In this document: one piece after another, positions 2,913 through 31,033 of the stretch | How the letters are laid out: each line of letters begins with the position of its first letter | Numbering within the stretch: position 1 is the first letter of the stretch | Assembly: GCA_030149205.1 (NCBI GenBank) | Contig: JASBSB010000007.1 | Location: 450,001 to 482,000, forward strand | Length of the DNA stretch: 32,000 bases | From: Candidatus Heimdallarchaeota archaeon | Lineage (GTDB): Archaea > Asgardarchaeota > Heimdallarchaeia > Heimdallarchaeales > Kariarchaeaceae | Reading direction: 5' to 3' | Position numbers and translations under genes: made by a program | Notes under the pieces: model-generated | The model's database searches: none | Seen by the model: only the letters and a program-made list of their open reading frames with translations | What the model was told of the DNA's origin: nothing

Positions 2913-2921
2913 GTGATTAAA

Positions 2922-5900
2922 ATGAAGAAATTTACAATTTCAATACTTTCTGTTATCTTGCTTCTTATGCTGGTCTCTAACCCATTGGTAAGCATCCATG
3001 GATTGAGCAGCTCAGATGTAACCTCAAAACCAGAACTTACTCCTTTGAAGGACTGGAAAGATGGCATAGTGAAGGATAACGGGACAAACCTAAATCCAAA
3101 CGGAGTCTACGATCAAAACACAGATCTTGGAAAATTTCTGTCAGATCAGAAATCGACATTTGATAAAAAATGGGATCCATGGCTCACTCAAGGTGCAGTT
3201 CATGCTGTGGCATCAACTGCTGACGGAGACATGATGGCAATAGCAACTGGATATCTCTATGATAACCAGATACATGTGTACAGATACAACCACAAAACAC
3301 TGCAATATGATCACGTATGGGAAGTAGGCGGTGGAGTGTTTCAGTCTGATGTATTTACATTGGATTTTGCAGACACAGACTACAACAATCTTACTGAGAT
3401 AATTGCCGGTGGAAATGACGGAAGAATCTATGTGTTTGAGCAAAGGCATCTTTATGATCCAGTTACAAATATGGAAAACATGTTTGATCTGGTTTGGACA
3501 AGCCCTCGTCTTGGAAGAATCTTTAGTGTGACTGTGGACGACACAGATATGGACTTCCGGAAAGATATTGTGATTGGAACTGGTGATACAGTCAGATGGT
3601 ATGAATATGATAACCACTCCAACTATCCCTTCACAAAGGATCACTGGATGACATTCAGAGAGGTAAGCACCTTTAAAGCAAACTCACAGATTACCGCCTT
3701 AGGTGTGTCTGATGTAAACAGCAACGGGTTGAAAGAGGTTGCAGTGGGTCAAAAGTCTGGAGAGATTCAACTGCTTGAGAATGCTGGGGTTGTAATCCCC
3801 ATCAACGGGAAAAAATTCCCCTATTATCAAGATAACACCTATAGACAAATCTGGAGCTCGAATAACACCCTTAGAAGAGGTATAAGCTCTATGAGTGGTG
3901 GAGACCTGGATAATGATGGGTATCGAGAACTCTTGATTGCAGTTCAAGGTCAAGGAGCCTATGTTCTTGATCAATTAGACGGGCAGCTTGGCACATACAG
4001 AATCGAAAGACCATTTGCACCATGGGAATCCAACATGACTGCGTTTTATTCATTGGATTACTATATAGACTCAATGGTCAACTCATCTAGCATGTTCAAT
4101 GGAACGTGGCTACCACTTGCCTCTGCTAATGTGTATTACAAGAACATTACAAACAGCTATCAGGAGCCATTCAACATAAGTAAATATGTCTATGATAACT
4201 ATCCCTACAACTCAGAGACTGTCAGAGTTCCTGATAATAAATACACAACCTTGGATGGAACCAAGGTTCCAGGAAAAGCAGCATGGGCAGTTTATGATTT
4301 TGGGCATGATGAAGAGGCAGCTGGTAATGGCGTGCCTACTCAGTATGACCTATCAATACTTCTGCACTCTACAAGCACAGCAGTTAATCCAACAGATATT
4401 GAGATCTCAATTTCGGCAGATAATGTAAACTTTCACAAGATTGATTCTAAGTACATTAAGTTTAACTCAAGCGTTCCATTGAATACTTACTACCGTGCAT
4501 TCAATGTTGAGGTTGATCCAACCCTGATAAATGCATCTTTGGATTATTACAGATATATTAACATCACGGTGTTTAGTAAAAAACTGGTCATAGATTCAAT
4601 GAAGACCCTCTCAATAAATAACCCGATTTATGATGCACAATCAACAGAGGTTGGTCCTCTTCTCTTCAAGGGAGAGACTGTCGCAGAGAAGGCAGGGTTT
4701 ATTGGAACAATTGACGGTACAATCTTGGCCGTTACCTGGAACCCAACCATGAAACGATACACAATTTCATGGGACAGTTGGGTAAATGAAAGATTTAAGC
4801 TGAAGAAAAACATCTTTGATATGGAGCTGGTTCATAAGTCTGGTAGATTCCCATCTATCATCGGAAACAAGTTCCTTGCTTCGATTGCTGATTTTACATC
4901 TGGGTTAATCAATCCTTTCAATGGCTTCACAGAGAAAGTAGTGTCCTATTCTGCAGAAAACTTCTATAACTATCAACAGGAGCCTCGAGCAGAGTTTGTT
5001 ATCTCAACTGATAGCGGGAGATTATTAATTTACAGACAGCAGGCAGATAACTCACCTCTGGTTTTAGATAAAGCCCTGTCTAAGCAAATGTTTGACACAC
5101 CCATGGTGTATTCAAGTAAACTTGCAAACAATTTGACAACGGTGATGCAATACATAAATCAGAGGAAGGCTCTAGCTAATGGACCAAAATATTTTACGGT
5201 TTCATTCGTTCCGTTAGAAAATGGTATTATGGATGGATTTCTTGGAACCCAATTAAACATAATCAACACACCGTTTTTGATGCTCTTAGGTGAATGGACT
5301 GGTTCATTAGGTGATCTACAAGCACAATTGACAGGAGTCCCTGATTCACCCGTTCAAAATAATGATCTGACCATGTGGTATGTATACAACTTCCCATTAG
5401 GGAACGCTGCCTGTGATCCAGCATTAGAACAATGTACAACCGTTGTACCTTATATGAATGACCGTACAAATGCGCCTTACAGTCTGAAGGACTTGGATCT
5501 GACTGGACAAATGCTTGGATATTTCAGACAATCCAGTTGGATGCCAAAAATTGCTGGCGGTGATTTTATTGGCTCCTCTTCGAAAGATCTCGTTCTAACA
5601 AATGGAAAATTGATGCTGTTGGAGGTAAGTTATTCGGCAGACCCGAATTATATTCCCACTAAACCCAAAAATCAATTCGTAGCTGGGCCATCAGTTTGGG
5701 GATCGTTTAGCCCCACAAGTCAGATTATCTACACAGCTAACCCCTCCTATTTCTCACAAATCAATGAGATGTCTAATGGAAGGCAATGGACGAATCCATA
5801 TCCAGTGGACTTTGATAATGATGGTGATCTTGATCTTATTCTTAGCTTTGCAAGGTATGATACAACCACGTTCACAGTTGATCTGAAGAAGTACGGAATG

Positions 5901-8900
5901 ACATATTTCGAGAACGCAGGAACCCGAAACAATCCAATCTGGATTGAAAGGAAGAAGGCTGTGACAAACAATGACCCAGATTCAAATCTTAGAGTTAACT
6001 TGTACACAGATCCAGTTTTCATTAACGATAACTATGATCTAAAGTTTGGGTATTATCCTACAGTTGGATACCATCCTTACTTTAAGACAGGTTTACCTTC
6101 CAGATTGGTCATGTTCAATCTCCCAAGCATCTCTGCCGGAGTGTTTGACGGAAAGTTAAACTCCTTCAAGCTTAATTATGAACCTGGAACCTCACTGATG
6201 GTGGCAACCTACCCAGAGACAAAAAGACTTGATATAAATCTCATGGACTATAATATGGGGTTGCTTGGGCAGACTAACTTTGGGTACCATATCTTTGAAA
6301 GTTGGAACAATGGTCGAGAGCTAAATAACTGGACTCTCTCCCTCAGTACAGCAGATATGGATCAAGATGGAAAGAATGAGGTAATTGTTGGTGATTTTAA
6401 CAACAATGCGTATGTATTTGAACATCTCACAAACAACACCTACAAGAGAGCCTACAAGACACCTGATATCAATCGAACAGTGGTCACAGATCAAAGTCCA
6501 TATGCCAGTAACCTATTTACGGGTATTAGTGGAAACTTTAACAGGACAATCTTTAACCACGCAACATTTACGATGGCAGGGGTAGACTTAAACAATAACA
6601 CACTCCAAGAATTCATCATTGCAACTGACTCTGTCTTGTATGTATTTGAATCCTATCTTACAAGAGCAGGAAGGATAAGGGATGACTCATACAGGTTAAT
6701 CGCACAGATTGATCTTTATTCCCTTCCAGCCCTCTCAAGGATGGATCGTAGCTTGATCAAGGTCAGCTCACTGACATGGGCAAACGACATCACCAATGAT
6801 GGCAACAGAGAATTAGTTGTCGCTGTTGGTCCCGCATTGTTAATTTTTGATATTCAATCACTTAATCATGACACAAGCCTTGCCTTTGTAAAACAGGTGT
6901 TTATGAATAGATTAGACTCAAATCTGTTCAACTGGAATGAAATTTTCTTCAAAGACACCTACAATGCCACCGGAAAGTACAACATGCCAGGAAACTACCT
7001 GATATCATTGAATCAGGTAATCTCTTCAGTCCTTGTTGAAGACATCAACAAGAATGGAAAGATGAATATAGTCATTGCAGGAAAAGATCTTGATACAGCT
7101 AAGCCTATAAGGGACGGCTTCATCAGAATCTATGAATGGACTGGTGTGAACTTTGATCAGATTATTGCTCCTGAGGTGTTTAAAAAGACAACCCAGTTCA
7201 ATATGATTACTGATCTAGAGACAGATGACGCAGACCATGATGGTTTAACAGAACTAATAATTGGACATCAAAATGGAATTGATATCTATGAGGTTACGGG
7301 TAGTAACACAGTTGAATATCGTGAGACAATCACCTCGAACCCTCATTATCAAGTGCCAAAGCATAATTATCTAGGTTTGGGAAGAACTCCCACCACATTC
7401 ACAAACGCAAAGGATGTAGTGCTACTTTCCAATGGGACTCTATTGATGGCATATGTTGTACAAGTGACCAAAGGAAACTTTGAGATAAGGGTTGCAGGAT
7501 CAAACGATGATGGAGCAACTTGGATCCAATATGGTGCAATAACCTATTCTGGAACAGCATCTGCGAGCTATCCTGGTGCTTTGGTTGCAATCGAAAGTAT
7601 AGACCTATTGATCAAAGGTGGATTATTGTGGTTATCTTTTGCGGAAAGACGCAGTGACACACCTACTACCGATGTGGCTGTGTTTTACGTAATTAGAAAC
7701 CTACAGTTCAAAACATCAAACACCGCATACTTTGTTAGTGCAACCTCAGTAACACGAAACAGTGAGCAATCTGCCTCACCACAAATGTTTAACTTTCCAA
7801 ATGCATCTACTACAGAGGTTGGGTTTGTTTACTTTAACTTCCAAAACTCAAGCTTATGGTTCTTAAGAGCAGATACAGCCTATGCAGGGATTTTTGGAAC
7901 ATACTTTTCCGCAAGCACAAGAGTCCTATGGGCTAACGGGTCAGTTTTAGGGGAAAAATTCCTTGTTCACTCACTCAGCGTCTATGATCAACCTAGAGGA
8001 AACTCACTCGATTTCGCATTTGCTGGATACCCCCGAAACGAATCCCTCTCACTTGCAGTGAACCTGTACTATGTGTCTGTGGATATATTTCGAGCTTCTA
8101 GCTGGATGTTTAACTTTACAAAACAACCAACCAAGGTGTTACAGGGTAACCTGCCAATTAAGTTCCCATCTATTATTCGAATGCAGGATACTGGGGCATT
8201 ACTCATCTCCTTTGAGCAGCTATCCCTGAAGCCATTTGGTGGACTTTATGCTGCTTGGTCAAATGATCTTGGAACCTCATGGAATGGACCATATTCTATG
8301 ACTCATCCTTATGGTTTGGATCTCCCTCTACTCACAGCATTACCGACCCCATCCAAAGAATCCTACAGAGTTGGAACATATGATGGCAGAATCATGCTTG
8401 ATTTCTTTGATGTCAGAAGACCTGTCCTTGTACCTACAAAAGGAAGTGGATTTACTCAAGTTTATAATGTGTACTTCACCACAAACCTGAGGAGAGAGGG
8501 TTCTATTGGGTATTGTGCTTCTTACACCTTCAATTTTGGGGATATTGCACAAACCATCTCTGGCACCTGTGATCCATACTCAGGCACTTCCAGGGTTTTG
8601 GCTTCTTTCCACAATCCGTGGAGTAACTTCACCACGTATTCCCTGAGAGGAGTTACTGATCTTACAGTTGGGGACACAGATAATGATGGTAGACATGAGA
8701 TACTTGCACTTAGCGGAAATCAGGCATATCTGTATGAATTTGCACACAACAGTAAGACATTCATTAGACATGTTGAGACCTGGATATCTGATCCATATGA
8801 TCAGCAACTACGTAAAGGTGCAATCTCAGATGCAAACGGAAATGGTATCCCTGAAATTATTCTCGAAACAGCAAGGGGTGTTGTAAACTCTTTTGAGTTG

Positions 8901-11645
8901 GTCAAAGCCAACAAAGAGGCACCAAATCTGAAGTATCCAATACTTGACGCCACAATCTCTACAACCGCAGGGATGAATAATTTAGTTCGTGAGATAATCC
9001 CAGTGGATGTAAACGCTGATGGTGTGGATGATATACTTTACAACACTCAGAATGGTGAACTAGTTGCAATTAACGGTAAGGACAACACACTCATCTATAA
9101 TGTGTTAAGTCCTTCACTGCCTCTAAGGTCAACGAGTCATGCAATATTTAACGATGTGAATCTTGTCCTTATCTCTCACAAGGCGACAGGAAAGGCAGAA
9201 TTTGTTGTTATGCCATATAACAACCTTCTGTATATCTACAAGTTGGATGGAACCTATGTGGGGTCCAAGATACTTGGTATCAATGGAACAGACTTCATTT
9301 CAGGGATACAGGCGATAAACTTAGATAACTCAGGTTTTGATGAGCTCGTTGTATCTGTCTCAAACGGAACAATCGTTGCCTATGATATGTCAAATCTTGT
9401 GGTTAGATTCTCTGTTCCCAGCAGTAAAAGCTTCATCACAAATGAATACATTGAGACCTTTAGAGTTGCCCACTATCTGAGTAATTCCAGCTTCAGTCTT
9501 GTAACAGTAACCAACAATGGTTTCTTTGAGATGTTTGACCTCACAACATTAACGTCTGTCTGGACAAAGCAAACAGCTGTCTCATTTGGTCGTATGGATG
9601 TGTCAACCTCTACCGACTGGAATGTCCTAAATGTGGGAGATTTCAATGGTGATGGGTTAGATGATTTGGCAGGAGGTCTTAATACCACAATCGTCCTCAA
9701 AGGTTCCAACGGTGACCAGCTCTGGAACCAAACTAACTCAAATCAAGTAATTCAAAGTGAGGCAATTGTTGAGGACATTAACGGAGATGGTATCGTCGAT
9801 TTTATCATCACCTATTACTCCTCTTTAACACCAAACGCTTTGATAATGAAAGCTGTCTCTGGATTAACAGGTACTGTGCTTTGGTCTTACCAACTTAAAG
9901 ATCAGGCTGGACTCGTGATTCCAGAATCATTTGTCTCATCTTTACTTGCCCCTGGTAAGAGGTTAATAACCGCTGGACTGTATGCCTTCGATTCCTATGG
10001 CTTAGTGAGTTCTGCAGAAACTGGACAGGTGATGCTTGGAGTCAAGAACCCCATTTCTCTGCTCAGTTCTGCACTTCTGGAGAAAGGTCAAGCAGAGCCA
10101 AAATTTGTCACTGGTGATCTCAATGGGACAGTCAGAATATACTCAATCTATGATGGTACCCCACCAGTCAACCGTGTAAAAACACCTCAGCTTCAAAAAA
10201 CACCATTCATCAGAGTGGGTTCTGATTTCACAGAGCGAACCAAATTCTTTGTACAGGATGTTTTTGGAGGAGATGGGATTGATGACATATTTGTGGTCGA
10301 TGATAATTACATTGGTGGTGCAGATACAAACAGACTCCTCAATGACCCAAGCTATAACACAGTTGAATGGTCTAAGGATCTCAAATTCAGTGGGAAGCTG
10401 TTAACTGCCATTCACGGTGACTTCAACAAGGATGGGAAAGCTGAAATTGTGGTAGCATTTGAAAATTACTGGATGTCCGTTGATATGAGAACTGGCTCAG
10501 TTCTCTGGAACAAAACACTTCCAATCAGCTCTGGGAATATTGCACTCTCAATGTCTTTACAGAATGCATCTCTCAACAAAAACTTGCCAGGAACCCAAAT
10601 TGCATTCTCTCTGGTTGAGAAAAACCCAACCTCAGGAGACAACATTACCTCCTTTGGGTATATTAACCCTGCTACAGGTGATCTATTGGATCTGTACTTC
10701 TTCACTGATTTCAAGAACCCCTCATTCACACTGGTTGATATTGACAAAGATGGATACGCTGAGTTTGTTGGAGCAATCAACCATCAGACAAACCCACTGG
10801 TAAACCGATATGTCATTTACCAGATTGACCAGGTAACTGGAAAGTTCATCATCATCAAAGATGCATACGTAACAGGATATCCTCCCATCAGTCAAGTCAT
10901 TGGTGGTGAGTTTGATCTGAGTAACACCAAAAGAGAGTTCACATTCGTTTTTGACTACTCTAGAATCAAAATTCCATTCCCAATGTATGATTTCTCAAGA
11001 GTTCCATCCATCATGTTTACTCTCACAGCAGACCTGACCACCAAGGTGCTTCAGGCAACCAACAACACCATTGGTGTGGCACCCTTTGGTGGTGAAGCCC
11101 GACGCTATATGCTGACTGATTACAACAAGGATGGACTTAATGAGGTTATCATTCAGACCGGATTTGGAGACCTTTATCAGATACAATATGGCAATTCTGG
11201 AATTTACATCAAAACTGGTGGAAAAATTGCAAGTGTGGCAGTGCCCTACGCAGAGACACCTTTCCTTGTTGGAAATTTCTTTGCTGGTGTATCCAATGCA
11301 ATGGCTGTGGTCATAAGTAGCGATGCAATGTCTCTCTATGATAATGCGAAACTTGACCCAACTGCAACGCCAAAGGGAAGTGTGGTATTAGCGATTGACA
11401 CTATTCAGGATATCATCCCTGGGCACTATGACAAAGATACTATTACCGATATAATGGTGATCAGTAAGGCTGGATATGTGTGGGTGGTAAACTCAGTTAA
11501 CCTCAGTCCACTTCAGCTAAACGAAAAAGGCATAGTAAAACCTGAACAGCAAAGCACAGTAACAGACAGAGTTGAAGTCATACCTGGGTTAATGCTTACT
11601 ATCTTTGTGATGATCATTATCCTGAGAAGAAAAAAGAAGAACTAG
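2922..11645 (+). CDS. Giant (~2,900 aa) secreted FG-GAP/VCBS-repeat multi-beta-propeller surface protein with C-terminal membrane anchor
   Basis: Signal peptide MKKFTISILSVILLLMLVSNPLVSIHG; ATG 2922 is preferred over GTG 2913 because GTGA lies 5 nt upstream. More than 20 D-x-[DN]-x-[DN]-G-x-x-[DE]-hydrophobic repeats (e.g. DLDNDGYRELLIA, DFDNDGDLDLILS, DFNGDGLDDLAGG), two Asp-boxes, and C-terminus VIPGLMLTIFVMIIILRRKKKN. Confidence 0.85.
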   Translation: MKKFTISILSVILLLMLVSNPLVSIHGLSSSDVTSKPELTPLKDWKDGIVKDNGTNLNPNGVYDQNTDLGKFLSDQKSTFDKKWDPWLTQGAVHAVASTADGDMMAIATGYLYDNQIHVYRYNHKTLQYDHVWEVGGGVFQSDVFTLDFADTDYNNLTEIIAGGNDGRIYVFEQRHLYDPVTNMENMFDLVWTSPRLGRIFSVTVDDTDMDFRKDIVIGTGDTVRWYEYDNHSNYPFTKDHWMTFREVSTFKANSQITALGVSDVNSNGLKEVAVGQKSGEIQLLENAGVVIPINGKKFPYYQDNTYRQIWSSNNTLRRGISSMSGGDLDNDGYRELLIAVQGQGAYVLDQLDGQLGTYRIERPFAPWESNMTAFYSLDYYIDSMVNSSSMFNGTWLPLASANVYYKNITNSYQEPFNISKYVYDNYPYNSETVRVPDNKYTTLDGTKVPGKAAWAVYDFGHDEEAAGNGVPTQYDLSILLHSTSTAVNPTDIEISISADNVNFHKIDSKYIKFNSSVPLNTYYRAFNVEVDPTLINASLDYYRYINITVFSKKLVIDSMKTLSINNPIYDAQSTEVGPLLFKGETVAEKAGFIGTIDGTILAVTWNPTMKRYTISWDSWVNERFKLKKNIFDMELVHKSGRFPSIIGNKFLASIADFTSGLINPFNGFTEKVVSYSAENFYNYQQEPRAEFVISTDSGRLLIYRQQADNSPLVLDKALSKQMFDTPMVYSSKLANNLTTVMQYINQRKALANGPKYFTVSFVPLENGIMDGFLGTQLNIINTPFLMLLGEWTGSLGDLQAQLTGVPDSPVQNNDLTMWYVYNFPLGNAACDPALEQCTTVVPYMNDRTNAPYSLKDLDLTGQMLGYFRQSSWMPKIAGGDFIGSSSKDLVLTNGKLMLLEVSYSADPNYIPTKPKNQFVAGPSVWGSFSPTSQIIYTANPSYFSQINEMSNGRQWTNPYPVDFDNDGDLDLILSFARYDTTTFTVDLKKYGMTYFENAGTRNNPIWIERKKAVTNNDPDSNLRVNLYTDPVFINDNYDLKFGYYPTVGYHPYFKTGLPSRLVMFNLPSISAGVFDGKLNSFKLNYEPGTSLMVATYPETKRLDINLMDYNMGLLGQTNFGYHIFESWNNGRELNNWTLSLSTADMDQDGKNEVIVGDFNNNAYVFEHLTNNTYKRAYKTPDINRTVVTDQSPYASNLFTGISGNFNRTIFNHATFTMAGVDLNNNTLQEFIIATDSVLYVFESYLTRAGRIRDDSYRLIAQIDLYSLPALSRMDRSLIKVSSLTWANDITNDGNRELVVAVGPALLIFDIQSLNHDTSLAFVKQVFMNRLDSNLFNWNEIFFKDTYNATGKYNMPGNYLISLNQVISSVLVEDINKNGKMNIVIAGKDLDTAKPIRDGFIRIYEWTGVNFDQIIAPEVFKKTTQFNMITDLETDDADHDGLTELIIGHQNGIDIYEVTGSNTVEYRETITSNPHYQVPKHNYLGLGRTPTTFTNAKDVVLLSNGTLLMAYVVQVTKGNFEIRVAGSNDDGATWIQYGAITYSGTASASYPGALVAIESIDLLIKGGLLWLSFAERRSDTPTTDVAVFYVIRNLQFKTSNTAYFVSATSVTRNSEQSASPQMFNFPNASTTEVGFVYFNFQNSSLWFLRADTAYAGIFGTYFSASTRVLWANGSVLGEKFLVHSLSVYDQPRGNSLDFAFAGYPRNESLSLAVNLYYVSVDIFRASSWMFNFTKQPTKVLQGNLPIKFPSIIRMQDTGALLISFEQLSLKPFGGLYAAWSNDLGTSWNGPYSMTHPYGLDLPLLTALPTPSKESYRVGTYDGRIMLDFFDVRRPVLVPTKGSGFTQVYNVYFTTNLRREGSIGYCASYTFNFGDIAQTISGTCDPYSGTSRVLASFHNPWSNFTTYSLRGVTDLTVGDTDNDGRHEILALSGNQAYLYEFAHNSKTFIRHVETWISDPYDQQLRKGAISDANGNGIPEIILETARGVVNSFELVKANKEAPNLKYPILDATISTTAGMNNLVREIIPVDVNADGVDDILYNTQNGELVAINGKDNTLIYNVLSPSLPLRSTSHAIFNDVNLVLISHKATGKAEFVVMPYNNLLYIYKLDGTYVGSKILGINGTDFISGIQAINLDNSGFDELVVSVSNGTIVAYDMSNLVVRFSVPSSKSFITNEYIETFRVAHYLSNSSFSLVTVTNNGFFEMFDLTTLTSVWTKQTAVSFGRMDVSTSTDWNVLNVGDFNGDGLDDLAGGLNTTIVLKGSNGDQLWNQTNSNQVIQSEAIVEDINGDGIVDFIITYYSSLTPNALIMKAVSGLTGTVLWSYQLKDQAGLVIPESFVSSLLAPGKRLITAGLYAFDSYGLVSSAETGQVMLGVKNPISLLSSALLEKGQAEPKFVTGDLNGTVRIYSIYDGTPPVNRVKTPQLQKTPFIRVGSDFTERTKFFVQDVFGGDGIDDIFVVDDNYIGGADTNRLLNDPSYNTVEWSKDLKFSGKLLTAIHGDFNKDGKAEIVVAFENYWMSVDMRTGSVLWNKTLPISSGNIALSMSLQNASLNKNLPGTQIAFSLVEKNPTSGDNITSFGYINPATGDLLDLYFFTDFKNPSFTLVDIDKDGYAEFVGAINHQTNPLVNRYVIYQIDQVTGKFIIIKDAYVTGYPPISQVIGGEFDLSNTKREFTFVFDYSRIKIPFPMYDFSRVPSIMFTLTADLTTKVLQATNNTIGVAPFGGEARRYMLTDYNKDGLNEVIIQTGFGDLYQIQYGNSGIYIKTGGKIASVAVPYAETPFLVGNFFAGVSNAMAVVISSDAMSLYDNAKLDPTATPKGSVVLAIDTIQDIIPGHYDKDTITDIMVISKAGYVWVVNSVNLSPLQLNEKGIVKPEQQSTVTDRVEVIPGLMLTIFVMIIILRRKKKN

Positions 11646-28164: not shown

Positions 28165-28476
28165 ATCAAAACGGTGTGGATTATAGGGAAGAAATAATTT
28201 AATCGACTCAATTAAGTGTTAAGTGGATTTTCTGCAATGCTGAAACTTTAAAAAAAGAATGAATTTATTTCGATAAATAGACTATTGACTAAAATAATAT
28301 GTGAACATAAGGTTAATATGTTTGCACTAAATAATCATTTTTCCCAAAAAATGCCATATTATTTGGATTATTGCCCTCAATCAATGATAATCTTTTAATA
28401 CCTTGAAAGCTATACTTAATATAGTTGTGTGGATTGCTTCAATTTGTGTTTTAGCATCACACAATAGGTGTCAAAA

Positions 28477-28710
28477 ATGGTTACTGCTGATCAAGAAATA
28501 GATACTAGTGGAATGAACTGTCCAATGCCTGTGCTTAAGAGTAAAAAGGCATTGAAGAAATTAGAGGTTGGTCAGATTCTCAAGATCATCTCTACAGATG
28601 TTGGAAGTATGAAAGATATCCCTTCATGGGCAAATACAACCGGTCAAGAGATTCTAGAATCCACAGAAGAAGGTGGAAAATATGTCTTCTTTGTTAAGAG
28701 GAGGAAATGA
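28477..28710 (+). CDS. tusA: TusA/SirA-family sulfur carrier protein (copy 1)
   Basis: IDTSGMNCPMPV motif, D.GS..DIPSW. ATG 28477 has AGGTG upstream (ORF open from GTG 28468). Confidence 0.9.
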   Translation: MVTADQEIDTSGMNCPMPVLKSKKALKKLEVGQILKIISTDVGSMKDIPSWANTTGQEILESTEEGGKYVFFVKRRK

Positions 28711-29189
28711 ATATGAGTGAGGATCGACCTAAAAGGGTGGCAATTATTGCAGCTCATGGGACATTAGATGCTGCTTACCCTCCTCTCATAATAGCTTCAA
28801 CTGCAGCTGCATTAGATATGGAGGTGGCAATCTTCTTCACCTTCTATGGCCTGGATATAATCAACAAGAAGAAATTAAATAACCTGAAGGTTCCTTCAGT
28901 GGGAAATCCAGCAATGCCAGTTCCAGTTCCAAATGTTGTGGGAATGCTCCCAGGGATGACTAGCATGGCAACTGGAATGATGAAAGGCAAGATGAAAAAG
29001 GCGAACGTGGCAACTATTCCTGAACTTCTTGAAATCTGTGAAGAGGCAGAAGTTAGGCTTATTGCCTGTCAAATGACGTTAGATGTGCTTGGAATAAAAA
29101 ATGAGGATATCATGGATGGTGTTGAATTTGCTGGGGCATCTACATTCCTCGAATTTGCCAAAGATGCAGACATTACATTGACTTTTTAG
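28707..29189 (+). CDS. DsrE/DsrF/DrsH-like (DsrE2/YrkE-type) sulfur carrier or peroxiredoxin-like protein
   Basis: YPPLIIASTAAALDMEVAIFFTFYGL, IACQMT with conserved Cys, GASTFL; ATGA overlap with tusA. Confidence 0.85.
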   Translation: MNMSEDRPKRVAIIAAHGTLDAAYPPLIIASTAAALDMEVAIFFTFYGLDIINKKKLNNLKVPSVGNPAMPVPVPNVVGMLPGMTSMATGMMKGKMKKANVATIPELLEICEEAEVRLIACQMTLDVLGIKNEDIMDGVEFAGASTFLEFAKDADITLTF

Positions 29190-29199
29190 GAGAACTAAT

Positions 29200-29613
29200 A
29201 TGACAACCATGTTGATATTACTAAAGAATGGAGATTATAACAGCCTAATGACGGCAGCAATGATTGCTTCTGGGGCTGTTGTGTCTGATATTGAAGTCAA
29301 GATTTTTGCTATGGAAGGTGCTGTCTTTGCCCTTAAAAAAGATGTATATAAGACAATAACTGGGTTTGATTCACCCTTTCCTGAGTACAACGAGAAGATG
29401 TCCAAGGCAAGAGATGAGGGGAAGTTACAGCCTTGGTATGACCTGATCAATGATTTAAAGGATTTAGGTGAGTTAACATTTACTGTCTGTGCTCTTGTCA
29501 CTGATCTTCTTGAATTAGAACTAGAGGATTTTGCTGATGTGGTGGATGATATCACTGGCGTAGCCAGTTACGCAGCAGATGCTGCAGAGGCAGACATATT
29601 TTTAACAGTTTAA
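29200..29613 (+). CDS. Second, divergent DsrE-family protein
   Basis: AAMIASGA...EVKIFAMEGAV, TVCAL (single Cys), GVASY; SD-like AGGAGA upstream. Confidence 0.75.
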   Translation: MTTMLILLKNGDYNSLMTAAMIASGAVVSDIEVKIFAMEGAVFALKKDVYKTITGFDSPFPEYNEKMSKARDEGKLQPWYDLINDLKDLGELTFTVCALVTDLLELELEDFADVVDDITGVASYAADAAEADIFLTV

Positions 29614-29625
29614 GGTGGAAACAAA

Positions 29626-29889
29626 ATGAGTTATACAGTCACGAAGAAAGTTGATGCAGTTGGTAGTTTCTGTCCGGGTCCACTAATGGAGCTAGTCAGA
29701 GGTATTAAAGAGGTAGAGGTAGGAGAGATTGTTGAATTGCTCTCCTCAGATAAGGGTTCAGCAGCAGAAGTACAGAAATGGTGCGAGAAGTCTGGAAATG
29801 AGCTCTTAGAGATCAAACAATATGATGGGGACACACAGGGATTTGTAATAAAGAAAGGTGAACGTAAGAGGAGGAGAAGACGTGAGTAA
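29626..29889 (+). CDS. tusA: TusA/SirA-family sulfur carrier protein (copy 2)
   Basis: VDAVGSFCPGPL, SSDKGS..EV.KW; SD-like AAGGTGG upstream. Confidence 0.9.
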   Translation: MSYTVTKKVDAVGSFCPGPLMELVRGIKEVEVGEIVELLSSDKGSAAEVQKWCEKSGNELLEIKQYDGDTQGFVIKKGERKRRRRRE

Positions 29890-31033
29890 TAACACAGTAA
29901 ATGTGGTTATCCTTGGTGCCGGGACTGGAGGAACCATCGTGGCCAATAAGCTGAACAAGAAACTAAAGAAAACAAAAAAGCCATTTCAGTTAACAGTCAT
30001 AGATCCATCATTTAAGCACGTTTATCAACCTGGATTCCTCTTTACTATGTTTAAGAAAGATAAAACTCACAGTATCGTCAAGGATGGGAAAAAACTTCTT
30101 CCAAAGAACACAAACATGATTGAAGAGAAGGTCAAAAAGGTAGAGACAAAGGATAAGGTTGTTATTACAGAAAGTGGAACAAAGGTTCCTTACGATTATT
30201 TAGTCATTGCAACCGGTGCTAAACTCTCACCAGAAAAGGTGGATTGGTGGGATGACAGTCTCTATCATTATTACTCTCCCGAGGCAGCAGATCGTCTTTC
30301 AGAAAAAATTGAGAATTTCAGAGAAGGAAAGATAATCATCGCCATCGGTGAAATTCCATATAAGTGTCCTCCTGCCCCAATTGAAGGTGCATTGTTGTTA
30401 GATGATTATTTCAAAAAGAAAGGGATCAGAGACAAGGTGGAGATACAGTACTGCTCTCCCTTGGATCGAGCCTTCAGTATTAAAACCGTGAATGAGGTTA
30501 TTGAACCAATCATGAATGAAAAAGGAATTGAAGTTGAAACCTTTTTCAATGTTGATGATGTGGATACAGAAGAGAAGGTTTTGTACAGCCTTGAAGGGTC
30601 GGACTTAGATTATGATCTTCTAATCATGATCCCCCCACACACGGGACAACCTTTCTTACATGAGTCAGGTATTGCCGGGAAATCTGGATGGGTACCGACT
30701 GATAGAGAGACATTAAGAGTGCAGGATCAGGAAAACATGTACGCTTTAGGAGACACAACAGATATACCCACCTCCAAGGCAGGATCAACAGCACACTATG
30801 AAGCACCAATCATTGCAGAGAACATCTACAAAGATATTATCGGCGACACAAACCTTACTAAATATGATGGGCATGTTCAATGTTTCTTCCTAACAGAATT
30901 TGGAAAATCATTATTCATTGATTTTAACTTTGAACATCCTCCCAAACCAGGAAAACCCTCAAGGTTCTGGTGGTGGTTTAAGCTTTTCTTTAAACCCTTT
31001 TATTTCAGAGCAGTTGCCAAGGGATTGGTTTAA
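29882..31033 (+). CDS. sqr: Sulfide:quinone oxidoreductase-like FAD-dependent oxidoreductase (type III-like)
   Basis: GAGTGG FAD motif, YDYLVIATG, KCPPAP, ALGD, YDGHVQCF (second Cys), aromatic amphipathic C-terminus RFWWWFKLFFKPFYF. The likely start is GTG 29882 after AGGAGGAGA (ORF open from 29858). Confidence 0.8.
   Translation: MSNNTVNVVILGAGTGGTIVANKLNKKLKKTKKPFQLTVIDPSFKHVYQPGFLFTMFKKDKTHSIVKDGKKLLPKNTNMIEEKVKKVETKDKVVITESGTKVPYDYLVIATGAKLSPEKVDWWDDSLYHYYSPEAADRLSEKIENFREGKIIIAIGEIPYKCPPAPIEGALLLDDYFKKKGIRDKVEIQYCSPLDRAFSIKTVNEVIEPIMNEKGIEVETFFNVDDVDTEEKVLYSLEGSDLDYDLLIMIPPHTGQPFLHESGIAGKSGWVPTDRETLRVQDQENMYALGDTTDIPTSKAGSTAHYEAPIIAENIYKDIIGDTNLTKYDGHVQCFFLTEFGKSLFIDFNFEHPPKPGKPSRFWWWFKLFFKPFYFRAVAKGLV

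Follow-up and report, generated by a model that had tools for sequence, protein, structure and literature searches.

Organisation of the locus

The window (the whole stretch of 32,000 nt that was analysed, from a Heimdall-group Asgard genome) contains five plus-strand ORFs at positions 28477-31033, which form one operon consisting of tusA1, dsrE2, a second DsrE2-family gene, tusA2 and sqr. An earlier reading, made from the sequence only, had placed five tightly packed genes at these positions, with Shine-Dalgarno (SD)-like motifs and with the active cysteine kept in each product; the ORFs, junctions and codons were all verified, and its naming of the products as TusA, DsrE, DsrE, TusA and SQR agrees with the Pfam and NCBIfam matches. 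The SD-like motifs are found 3-9 nt 5' of the five starts (AGGTG, GAGGAGG, TAGGAG, AAGGTGG and GAGGAGGAG), AGGTG being located 6 nt upstream of the tusA1 start (ATG 28477). The tusA1 and dsrE2 genes overlap by 4 nt, or are separated by 2 nt if dsrE2 starts at ATG 28713, and the next two junctions (dsrE2/third gene and third gene/tusA2) comprise gaps of 10 and 12 nt. At the last junction, tusA2 and sqr overlap by 8 nt with an sqr start at GTG 29882, a start that agrees with the 383-aa database protein P0001.

Upstream of tusA1 lies an AT-rich intergenic region (28165-28476), shared with a divergent gene for a HAD hydrolase and presumed to hold an archaeal promoter. A scan for sigma-70 promoters and terminators, whose scope does not extend to archaeal promoters, gave sites no more numerous than in shuffled sequences, and no Rfam family matched anywhere in the window including this upstream region. 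On the other side the cassette is flanked by a gene for an exonuclease III-type nuclease. Thus, as had been noted before, rhodanese, persulfide dioxygenase (PDO), TauE and a regulator are absent from the flanks. The nearest relatives carry the names Heimdallarchaeota or Kariarchaeaceae, in line with the "probable Asgard" origin proposed from the sequence. None of the five proteins has a signal peptide upon direct inspection of the sequences.

Sulfur carrier proteins

The tusA1 gene (28477-28710) encodes a TusA-family carrier of 77 aa (PF01206, 6.9e-25, 87.1 bits) with its active cysteine, Cys15, in the motif CPMP (GMNCPMP; codon 28519-28521 verified). It is the TusA paralogue that travels with dsrE2. 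The second paralogue, tusA2 (29626-29889; 87 aa; PF01206, 2.5e-17, 62.9 bits), carries Cys16 in a CPGP motif (GSFCPGP; codon 29671-29673 verified) and ends in a basic C-terminal tail. Both proteins score above the PF01206 cut-off of 28.6 bits, and the active-site cysteine was present in 151/151 TusA proteins encoded by such cassettes. In a tree, all TusA proteins encoded directly before SQR (94/94) fell into one clade, which is set apart from the clade of the DsrE2-adjacent TusA proteins with a support of 0.96. The two are, as judged from this tree, separate, old paralogues.

The dsrE2 gene (28707-29189; 160 aa; start possibly ATG 28713) encodes a DsrE2-type carrier (PF13686, 3.5e-51, 173.7 bits), which reaches 199.9 bits with the NCBIfam equivalog model NF047629 and thereby stays below the cut-off of 210. 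It matches Sulfolobus DsrE2B (PDB 2QS7) with 3.8e-17 and contains an inserted Met/Pro-rich loop. Cys121 (LIACQMT; codon 29067-29069 verified) is kept in the orthologues; a second cysteine, C111, is not. The product of the third gene (29200-29613; 137 aa) is matched by PF13686 in its C-terminal part (4.5e-9) and by 2QS7 over its full length (1.3e-11) with the cysteines aligned; this residue, Cys97 (FTVCALV; codon 29488-29490 verified), is present in all orthologues, and the gene is linked to sqr in most loci. The protein appears to be DsrE2B-like or DsrE4-like, as judged from the 2QS7 match and from gene position. Taken together, the four small proteins, from the TusA and the DsrE2 family, are predicted to carry sulfur on a single cysteine each.

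The flavoprotein

The last gene, sqr (29882-31033), encodes a protein of 383 aa whose best model is NF049943, for sulfide:quinone oxidoreductase (SQR) of type III, with 398.6 bits over 352 residues, compared with 63.9 bits for the next model unrelated to SQR. The score lies below the model's cut-off of 525 bits, which belongs to an "exception" model built for a selenocysteine-containing (Sec) subtype. Our typing is based on NCBIfam, on similarity to PDB entries and on published trees, in which the SQRs of Heimdallarchaeia are mostly of type III (PMC11193907). Both redox cysteines, Cys162 (PYKCPPA; codon 30365-30367) and Cys334 (HVQCFFL; codon 30881-30883), were verified at the codon level, are unchanged across 13 homologues and align with both active-site cysteines of human SQOR (3.6e-42). 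Two canonical catalytic cysteines are the pair named for type III SQR (PMC13047784). The N-terminus carries an FAD Rossmann motif, and the C-terminus a single amphipathic helix (residues 361-378; 30962-31015), which is also present in the AF2 model (pLDDT 89.9). With this model, Foldseek returned human SQOR as the best match (TM 0.90), and nearly all of the top ~20 matches were SQR or FCSD structures. From sequence and model, we assign the flavoprotein as a predicted type III SQR that keeps the two redox cysteines and has an FAD-binding two-Rossmann fold as well as a helix for monotopic membrane binding; its activity is likewise a prediction.

The Sec subtype of the best model raises the question if the cassette handles another chalcogen, selenide, instead of sulfide. 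The two TusA proteins do match YedF models, far under the cut-off, and AIR-synthase-type domains, which could be SelD, occur in 3 of 150 neighbouring ORFs of other loci. The SQR of the window, however, carries Cys and not Sec, and the genome, which is 93.5% complete, yielded no SelD with a score over the cut-off, so that we regard a role in selenide metabolism as extremely improbable.

Distribution and gene order

The cassette is not particular to this Heimdall genome but recurs widely across archaea as well as bacteria. A survey of gene order, which the first reading had suggested, recovered it both from Heimdall genomes and from metagenomic loci. Since the same genes are kept in dozens of other loci, their association goes beyond chance. 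Among genomes of the Heimdall class two gene orders occur; the module is kept across families despite this shuffling, and tusA1 and dsrE2 change place jointly, as one unit, from one arrangement to the other. Of 80 metagenomic loci, 63 offered enough upstream sequence, and in 58 of these a TusA gene lies directly upstream of sqr, as it does in Heimdall loci; strict TusA-SQR adjacency was seen in 94 loci. The commonest core of the metagenomic loci is dsrE-like-tusA-sqr, and all four carriers are present in 21 of the 33 loci with long flanks. In a variant found in Bacteroidota, a DsrC/TusE-type carrier takes the place of TusA beside SQR and DsrE2. A census of 150 ORFs flanking the metagenomic loci gave ArsR-type regulators as the sole recurrent neighbour. 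In the surveyed loci the cassette usually stands alone, PDO, Hdr and exporter genes being absent nearby, and no biosynthetic sulfur-acceptor gene is linked to it.

Possible sinks and partners in the genome

The sequence-only reading had proposed a minimal relay. This holds for the locus itself, which is devoid of extras, but not for the genome, which elsewhere encodes a CstB-like enzyme, rhodaneses, TauE, oxidases and, together with a DsrE, a third TusA. Of the systems that it had named for a genome-wide check, sHdr was not found and a CstB-like PDO-rhodanese as well as rhodaneses were. The CstB-like enzyme, an MBL-rhodanese fusion (best PDB matches 3TP9 and 3R2U), is encoded on another contig next to cytochrome bd; in addition, the genome contains several rhodaneses, three TauE proteins and three haem-copper oxidases. 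A search for CCG-domain proteins and DsrC in the 93.5%-complete genome yielded no DsrC and a single CCG-domain ORF of 695 aa, which argues against sHdr or Dsr as the sink. DUF1641 is absent from the five cassette proteins and from the whole genome.

The CstB-like PDO was ruled out as a general downstream partner owing to poor co-occurrence across the class: it was found in 3/31 versus 26/31 for SQR in family f3, and in 0/22 versus 11/22 in family f5. Within 1.5-kb flanks, relatives did not show it beside cydAB. This poor co-occurrence, together with the mostly solitary cassette that has no PDO, Hdr or exporter nearby, would also suit an assimilatory role, in which protein-bound persulfide is made from free sulfide for biosynthesis (thiolated tRNA, molybdopterin, thiamine, Fe-S clusters) and quinone reduction is incidental. 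In E. coli, TusA is known to donate sulfur for biosynthesis (PMC4175335), and sulfide-adapted Methylacidiphilum fumariolicum altered the expression of sulfide-biosynthesis genes (PMC10205796). On the other hand, the related operon of that bacterium is up with H2S while bulk sulfide is converted to elemental sulfur (PMC10205796), which suits detoxification or respiration, and the surveyed loci have no biosynthetic acceptor gene linked to them. We therefore consider assimilation unlikely.

The third TusA and a DsrE adjoin a Qmo-like, quinone-interacting HdrA complex, and in two Heimdall genomes such a TusA/DsrE-bracketed complex adjoins the cassette itself. As a general partner, the Qmo-like cluster is unsupported: the ten best QmoC-like matches (E at most 1e-72) fall in ten genomes, a set that takes in the present genome and the two SQR-adjacent clusters, and SQR was present in 8/10 of these versus ~60% of the class, which is no clear enrichment. 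The quinone-interacting complex next to a further TusA/DsrE set could also point to the reverse direction, with the flavoprotein using quinol to reduce polysulfide or persulfides borne on TusA/DsrE, so that H2S is released in sulfur respiration or in disposal of sulfane sulfur. Cysteine pair/FAD chemistry is reversible in principle, and the carriers could donate as well as accept. Such a reversal is nonetheless quite improbable, as characterised type III SQRs couple quinone reduction to sulfide oxidation and a homologous operon is induced by H2S (PMC10205796), and oxygen reductases are encoded in the Heimdall genome.

Proposed function

We propose that the five genes constitute a single operon whose products oxidise sulfide in the cytoplasm and include their own protein relay for persulfide, a reading that we regard as rather likely. 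According to this proposal, SQR would oxidise H2S at Cys162/Cys334 and pass two electrons via FAD to the membrane quinone, and the quinol would be re-oxidised by cytochrome bd or the haem-copper oxidases. TusA2, whose gene lies directly before sqr and overlaps it here, would take the sulfane sulfur from SQR as a persulfide. The strict TusA-SQR adjacency makes such loading of a carrier by SQR plausible. From TusA2, the sulfur may proceed to TusA1 and both proteins of the DsrE2 type, which would buffer reactive sulfur and pass it on, although the order of the carriers is a guess. In this genome the likely sink would be the CstB-like persulfide dioxygenase-rhodanese, followed by export of sulfite or thiosulfate via TauE. 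As most other organisms with the cassette have no fixed sink nearby, its general role is probably detoxification of sulfide and sulfane sulfur, with energy gain as a bonus.

Several published observations count against parts of this proposal. In cable bacteria, type III SQR is taken to face the periplasm, an assumption of a recent paper (PMC13293266), in contrast to our cytoplasm-facing model. In M. fumariolicum, which has a small cassette, the product is elemental sulfur and not sulfite (PMC10205796). Also, DsrE2B of Metallosphaera cuprina proved unreactive towards all six sulfur compounds that it was offered, and the TusA of this archaeon took thiosulfonate and not persulfide (PMC4175335). 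The latter result would fit an enzyme that yields sulfur at the thiosulfate level, as human SQOR, the closest solved structure, does on sulfite, with the carriers binding Cys-S-thiosulfonate as seen for M. cuprina TusA and DsrE3A (PMC4175335). The carriers in the window, however, are of the DsrE2 type and not DsrE3A, M. cuprina DsrE2B did not accept thiosulfonate (PMC4175335), and the cassette has no linked sulfite source; a thiosulfonate relay is thus very improbable.

A persulfide relay fed by SQR may be extended, doubtfully, to the whole clade, in that its type III SQRs might be two-component enzymes with a dedicated cytoplasmic TusA as acceptor, unlike periplasm-facing polysulfide producers, and that some Heimdall lineages may feed the persulfide to the TusA/DsrE-bracketed Qmo-like HdrA complex. 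If true, this would amount to a route for oxidising or reducing sulfur that has so far gone undescribed. The cassette adds a concrete module for sulfide tolerance and respiration to the Heimdall archaea, lineages thought to inhabit oxic-sulfidic interfaces, and leaves the general picture of sulfur metabolism unchanged. In many bacteria as well as in Asgard archaea, the TusA gene that abuts sqr offers a direct handle on the sulfur acceptor of type III SQR, an enzyme that recent models assume to release polysulfide outside the cytoplasm.

Comparison with known systems

Operons of the cst/yrk type (S. aureus cst; B. licheniformis yrk, PMC9918477) resemble the Heimdall system in their logic of SQR, sulfurtransferases and persulfide dioxygenase, the latter represented here by the CstB-like enzyme. 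In the Heimdall genome, however, the parts are spread over contigs, the carriers are TusA/DsrE2 proteins instead of a CstA-type multidomain transferase, and neither a regulator nor TauE adjoins the cassette. Accordingly, the window does not hold a cluster of this type (SQR, PDO, multidomain rhodanese/TusA transferase, TauE and persulfide-sensing repressor), nor did the search for CCG-domain proteins and DsrC reveal an sHdr system (two HdrB-type CCG proteins, HdrA/C and LbpA) or rDsr (DsrAB and DsrC) in the genome. The tusA-dsrE2 pair as a unit is known from the sulfur-relay genes rhd-tusA-dsrE2, which occur in sulfur oxidisers such as Allochromatium vinosum (PMC11094781), whereas the present cassette lacks the rhodanese and has no Dsr or sHdr to feed.

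The best solved match to the window SQR in sequence as well as structure is human SQOR (PDB 6OI5/8DHK), which is ~24% identical and belongs to type II, in contrast to the window protein with its type III assignment by HMM and its one short C-terminal helix. Human SQOR passes sulfane sulfur to an acceptor instead of building long polysulfide chains. Its acceptors are small molecules, unlike the protein carriers proposed here.

Closer counterparts are found in two published loci. The "sulfur island" of M. cuprina (Mcup_1722-1724) is tusA-sqr-dsrE4 (Liu et al. 2014, PMC4175335), and this archaeal arrangement with TusA immediately 5' of sqr equals the core of the window cassette. A single TusA and a single DsrE are encoded there, compared with two of each in the window, and the Sulfolobales have sHdr, which was not found in the Heimdall genome. 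What defines DsrE4 is its location after sqr, and the role put forward for it is detoxification of reactive sulfur species (PMC4175335). In M. fumariolicum SolV, sqr-tusA-dsrE2 (MFUM_v2_0219-0221) rose ~1.7-fold upon adaptation of the cells to sulfide, together with a terminal oxidase that is insensitive to sulfide (Schmitz et al. 2023, PMC10205796). Here, too, type III SQR, TusA and DsrE2 occur together, in three genes with the carriers downstream, whereas the cassette in the window comprises five genes, and its two TusA paralogues and two DsrE2-type proteins are encoded upstream of sqr. In the searchable literature no different function is assigned to the cassette, a possibility that the first reading had left room for. 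Papers of 2014 and 2023 already described the core of the cassette, and type III SQR in Heimdallarchaeia has been published as well; with its adjacent genes on the same strand, the window contains this published type III SQR-TusA-DsrE module.

Organization of the cassette

The cassette consists of five plus-strand genes: tusA1 (28477..28710), dsrE2 (28707..29189), a shorter DsrE-like gene (gene 3, 29200..29613), tusA2 (29626..29889) and sqr (29882..31033). An ORF check placed all five where the sequence-only reading had put them, and Pfam and NCBIfam searches backed its naming of the products as TusA, two DsrE proteins, TusA and SQR. Gene 1 matched the TusA family (PF01206, 6.9e-25) and gene 4 was recovered as a second TusA (2.5e-17). 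Gene 2 is a DsrE2 (PF13686, 3.5e-51; NCBIfam NF047629 with 199.9 bits, slightly below the 210-bit cut-off), and gene 3 belongs to the DsrE family (PF13686, 4.5e-9). All cysteine motifs quoted earlier were found, and their codons were checked. The tight packing claimed for the locus is real: junctions do not exceed 12 nt, and a purine-rich Shine-Dalgarno-like motif lies 5' of each start. The tusA1/dsrE2 junction is a 4-nt overlap or a 2-nt gap, 10 and 12 nt separate the genes at the next two, and tusA2 and sqr overlap by 8 nt if sqr starts at GTG 29882, a start that agrees with a 383-aa database protein. Both neighbours, a divergent HAD hydrolase upstream and a convergent exonuclease III-type nuclease downstream, are unrelated genes. 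Judged by its closest homologues, which carry the names Heimdallarchaeota or Kariarchaeaceae, the source organism is a Heimdall-group Asgard archaeon. Its genome comprises 3.3 Mb in 12 contigs (93.5% complete). Elsewhere in the window, positions 2913-11645 (+) hold one ORF of 2910 aa, preceded by an ORF of more than 940 aa.

The SQR enzyme

For gene 5, a pyridine-nucleotide-disulfide oxidoreductase, NF049943 (type III SQR, 398.6 bits) was the sole strong specific model in the NCBIfam search, the next reaching 63.9 bits. The score stays below the cut-off of 525 bits because this model was made for the selenocysteine subtype of type III SQR; no SelD above cut-off was found in the 93.5% complete genome. 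In the alignment with human SQOR (3.6e-42), Cys162 and Cys334 fall on both human active-site cysteines, and they are invariant among 13 homologues of 45-65% identity. The AlphaFold model, of high confidence (pLDDT 89.9, pTM 0.89), had human SQOR as its best Foldseek match (TM 0.90), and the top ~20 matches were nearly all SQR or flavocytochrome c sulfide dehydrogenase structures. Residues 361-378 form one Trp-, Phe- and Lys-rich helix at the C-terminus of the model, and the N-terminus begins with the FAD-binding Gly motif from the outset. No signal peptide was seen on inspection of the SQR and the four small proteins which, in an archaeon with one membrane, strongly argues that the SQR active site and the carriers lie on the cytoplasmic side. 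Type III SQR of Heimdallarchaeia was reported earlier on phylogenetic grounds (PMC11193907); TusA and DsrE go unmentioned there.

The sulfur carriers

Genes 2 and 3 both aligned with the Sulfolobus DsrE2B structure 2QS7 (3.8e-17 and 1.3e-11), each with its cysteine on that of 2QS7. Compared with this structure, DsrE2 has a Met/Pro-rich extra loop (window 28920-29020, residues ~72-105) that is kept in orthologues. Among proteins pooled from cassette loci, the active cysteine is present in all 151 TusAs and in 127 of 128 DsrE-family proteins. When the TusAs pooled from all cassette loci were placed in a tree and labelled by genomic position alone, a branch with a support of 0.96 set all those directly before sqr (94/94) apart from the 54 adjoining dsrE2. 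Given these position-specific clades, the operon is, on sequence grounds, a composite of two old units, namely a core of DsrE-like protein, TusA2 and SQR, and a TusA1-DsrE2 pair. TusA2 ends in a basic run, KKGERKRRRRRE (window 29854-29886), which is similar in close relatives and absent from the other Heimdall gene-order group; it might keep TusA2 at the membrane, close to SQR.

Distribution and gene order

An SQR of the cassette type was detected in 61 of 400 genomes of the Asgard phylum, concentrated in families of the Heimdall class (9/11, 26/31, 2/3, 11/22 and 2/2 genomes). The survey of gene order proposed earlier showed that the cassette recurs, with two orders among Heimdall loci: that of the window, tusA1-dsrE2-dsrE-like-tusA2-sqr, and tusA2-sqr-tusA1-dsrE2-(dsrE-like). 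As 26 Heimdall SQRs form one clade (support 0.91), the cassette looks as if it was inherited within the class and then rearranged. The SQRs of two loci from another Asgard family (L039 and L044, family f12) lie outside the main Heimdall clade, and the TusA preceding sqr is the sole cassette gene seen within their 1.5-kb flanks.

The cassette is not confined to Asgard archaea. A metagenome scan with the SQR alignment gave 80 loci (38-46% identity), picked by similarity to the window SQR, so that their fractions describe its clade and not type III SQRs overall. In 58 of the 63 with at least 300 nt upstream, TusA is encoded directly 5' of sqr; in the other five, tusA still belongs to the cluster that surrounds sqr on its own strand, within ~2.6 kb. 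Envelope-based ordering likewise placed tusA2 immediately 5' of sqr in nearly all loci with an upstream accessory gene. All four carriers occur in 21 of 33 metagenomic loci with long flanks, the commonest orders being dsrE-like-tusA1-dsrE2-tusA2-sqr and dsrE-like-tusA2-sqr. Named relatives include Chloroflexota and Nitrososphaerales. A variant in Balneolales and other Bacteroidota (L003-L010, for example L005:4995-7138) has the order type III sqr, DsrC/TusE, dsrE2, without TusA; its single-Cys DsrC/TusE-family protein (PF04358, 9.4e-36) is a different small carrier in TusA's place.

A census of cassette flanks in the metagenomic loci, covering 150 ORFs, gave an ArsR-type regulator (12 ORFs) as the sole recurrent neighbour; PDO, rhodanese, Hdr and exporter genes were not recurrent. 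These ArsR-family HTH regulators, found in loci L046-L095, may be persulfide-sensing repressors; none adjoins the cassette in the window.

Sulfur and respiratory genes elsewhere in the genome

A search for sHdr, PDO and rhodanese, suggested by the sequence-only reading, had a mixed outcome: rhodaneses (nine domain matches) and a CstB-like PDO are present, and sHdr was not found (a single CCG-domain ORF). Neither DsrC nor DUF1641 was found in the 93.5% complete genome, which does encode three TauE proteins, one sulfite-oxidase-family domain and three haem-copper oxidase subunits I. The CstB-like protein (474 aa) combines a metallo-beta-lactamase domain with two rhodanese domains and shows both an HxHxD-type metal motif and a rhodanese loop of the CxxGxR type. 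Its best PDB matches were 3TP9 (5.9e-45) and 3R2U (3.4e-36), the latter being S. aureus CstB, then BpPRF and human ETHE1. On contig 1 (L015:3171-7580; G000:C1:249171-253580) cytochrome bd subunit I and a second, divergent bd-like subunit come directly after its gene; flanks of 1.5 kb in relatives did not show this arrangement. As a general cassette partner the CstB-like enzyme was rejected: two families have it in 3/31 and 0/22 genomes, versus 26/31 and 11/22 for SQR.

A third TusA heads a cluster on contig 12 (L014:7013-13594; G000:C12:71012-77593), followed by an MvhD/FlpD-like protein, two HdrA/QmoA-QmoB-like flavoproteins, a 96-aa protein that is conserved but matches no family, a QmoC-like membrane subunit (204 bits with NF038018, whose cut-off is 300), DsrE and an ArsR-type HTH regulator. 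By its gene content the cluster encodes a Qmo-like, quinone-interacting complex with sulfur carriers on either side. In two other Heimdall genomes, of different families (L148, L149), 1-4 kb separate it from the SQR cassette; as no clear co-occurrence was seen across the class, we regard it as a lead and not as part of the mechanism.

Proposed function and comparison with known systems

The cassette is best read as a self-contained cytoplasmic module. SQR would oxidise sulfide and reduce quinone, passing sulfane sulfur to TusA2 as first acceptor; the DsrE2-type proteins and TusA1 would hold the sulfur and then hand it on. In this genome the CstB-like dioxygenase and TauE could finish oxidation to sulfite or thiosulfate; cassettes elsewhere may yield elemental sulfur, the product in Methylacidiphilum, or sulfur for biosynthesis. 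The minimal relay proposed earlier finds partial support; 'minimal' goes too far for a genome that also holds a CstB-like enzyme, rhodaneses and TauE. The identity of the parts, their intact catalytic residues and gene co-inheritance are firm; we infer which way the sulfur moves, that TusA2 accepts it first, and where it ends up.

Human SQOR, the closest solved relative, requires an acceptor for its persulfide, and many cassette-bearing organisms presumably lack glutathione. By this argument a protein acceptor would be attractive. The lack of reaction of Metallosphaera cuprina DsrE2B with any of six sulfur compounds in vitro (PMC4175335) counts against easy persulfidation of the carriers. In the searched literature we found neither a description of the five-gene form nor a test of sulfur transfer from SQR to TusA/DsrE.

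The cassette belongs to an already known, widespread kind. For cable bacteria, a periplasm-facing type III SQR is assumed in a model from 2026 (PMC13293266). The DsrE4 group was defined as DsrE proteins encoded 3' of sqr (Liu et al. 2014, PMC4175335), and its proposed role in detoxifying reactive sulfur species was restated later (PMC11094781). In M. cuprina, TusA (Mcup_1722) is followed by SQR (Mcup_1723) and Mcup_1724 (Liu et al. 2014, PMC4175335). Methylacidiphilum fumariolicum has an operon of type III SQR, TusA and DsrE2, ~1.7-fold upregulated in sulfide-adapted cells, and these cells converted H2S by oxidation to elemental sulfur (Schmitz et al. 2023, PMC10205796).
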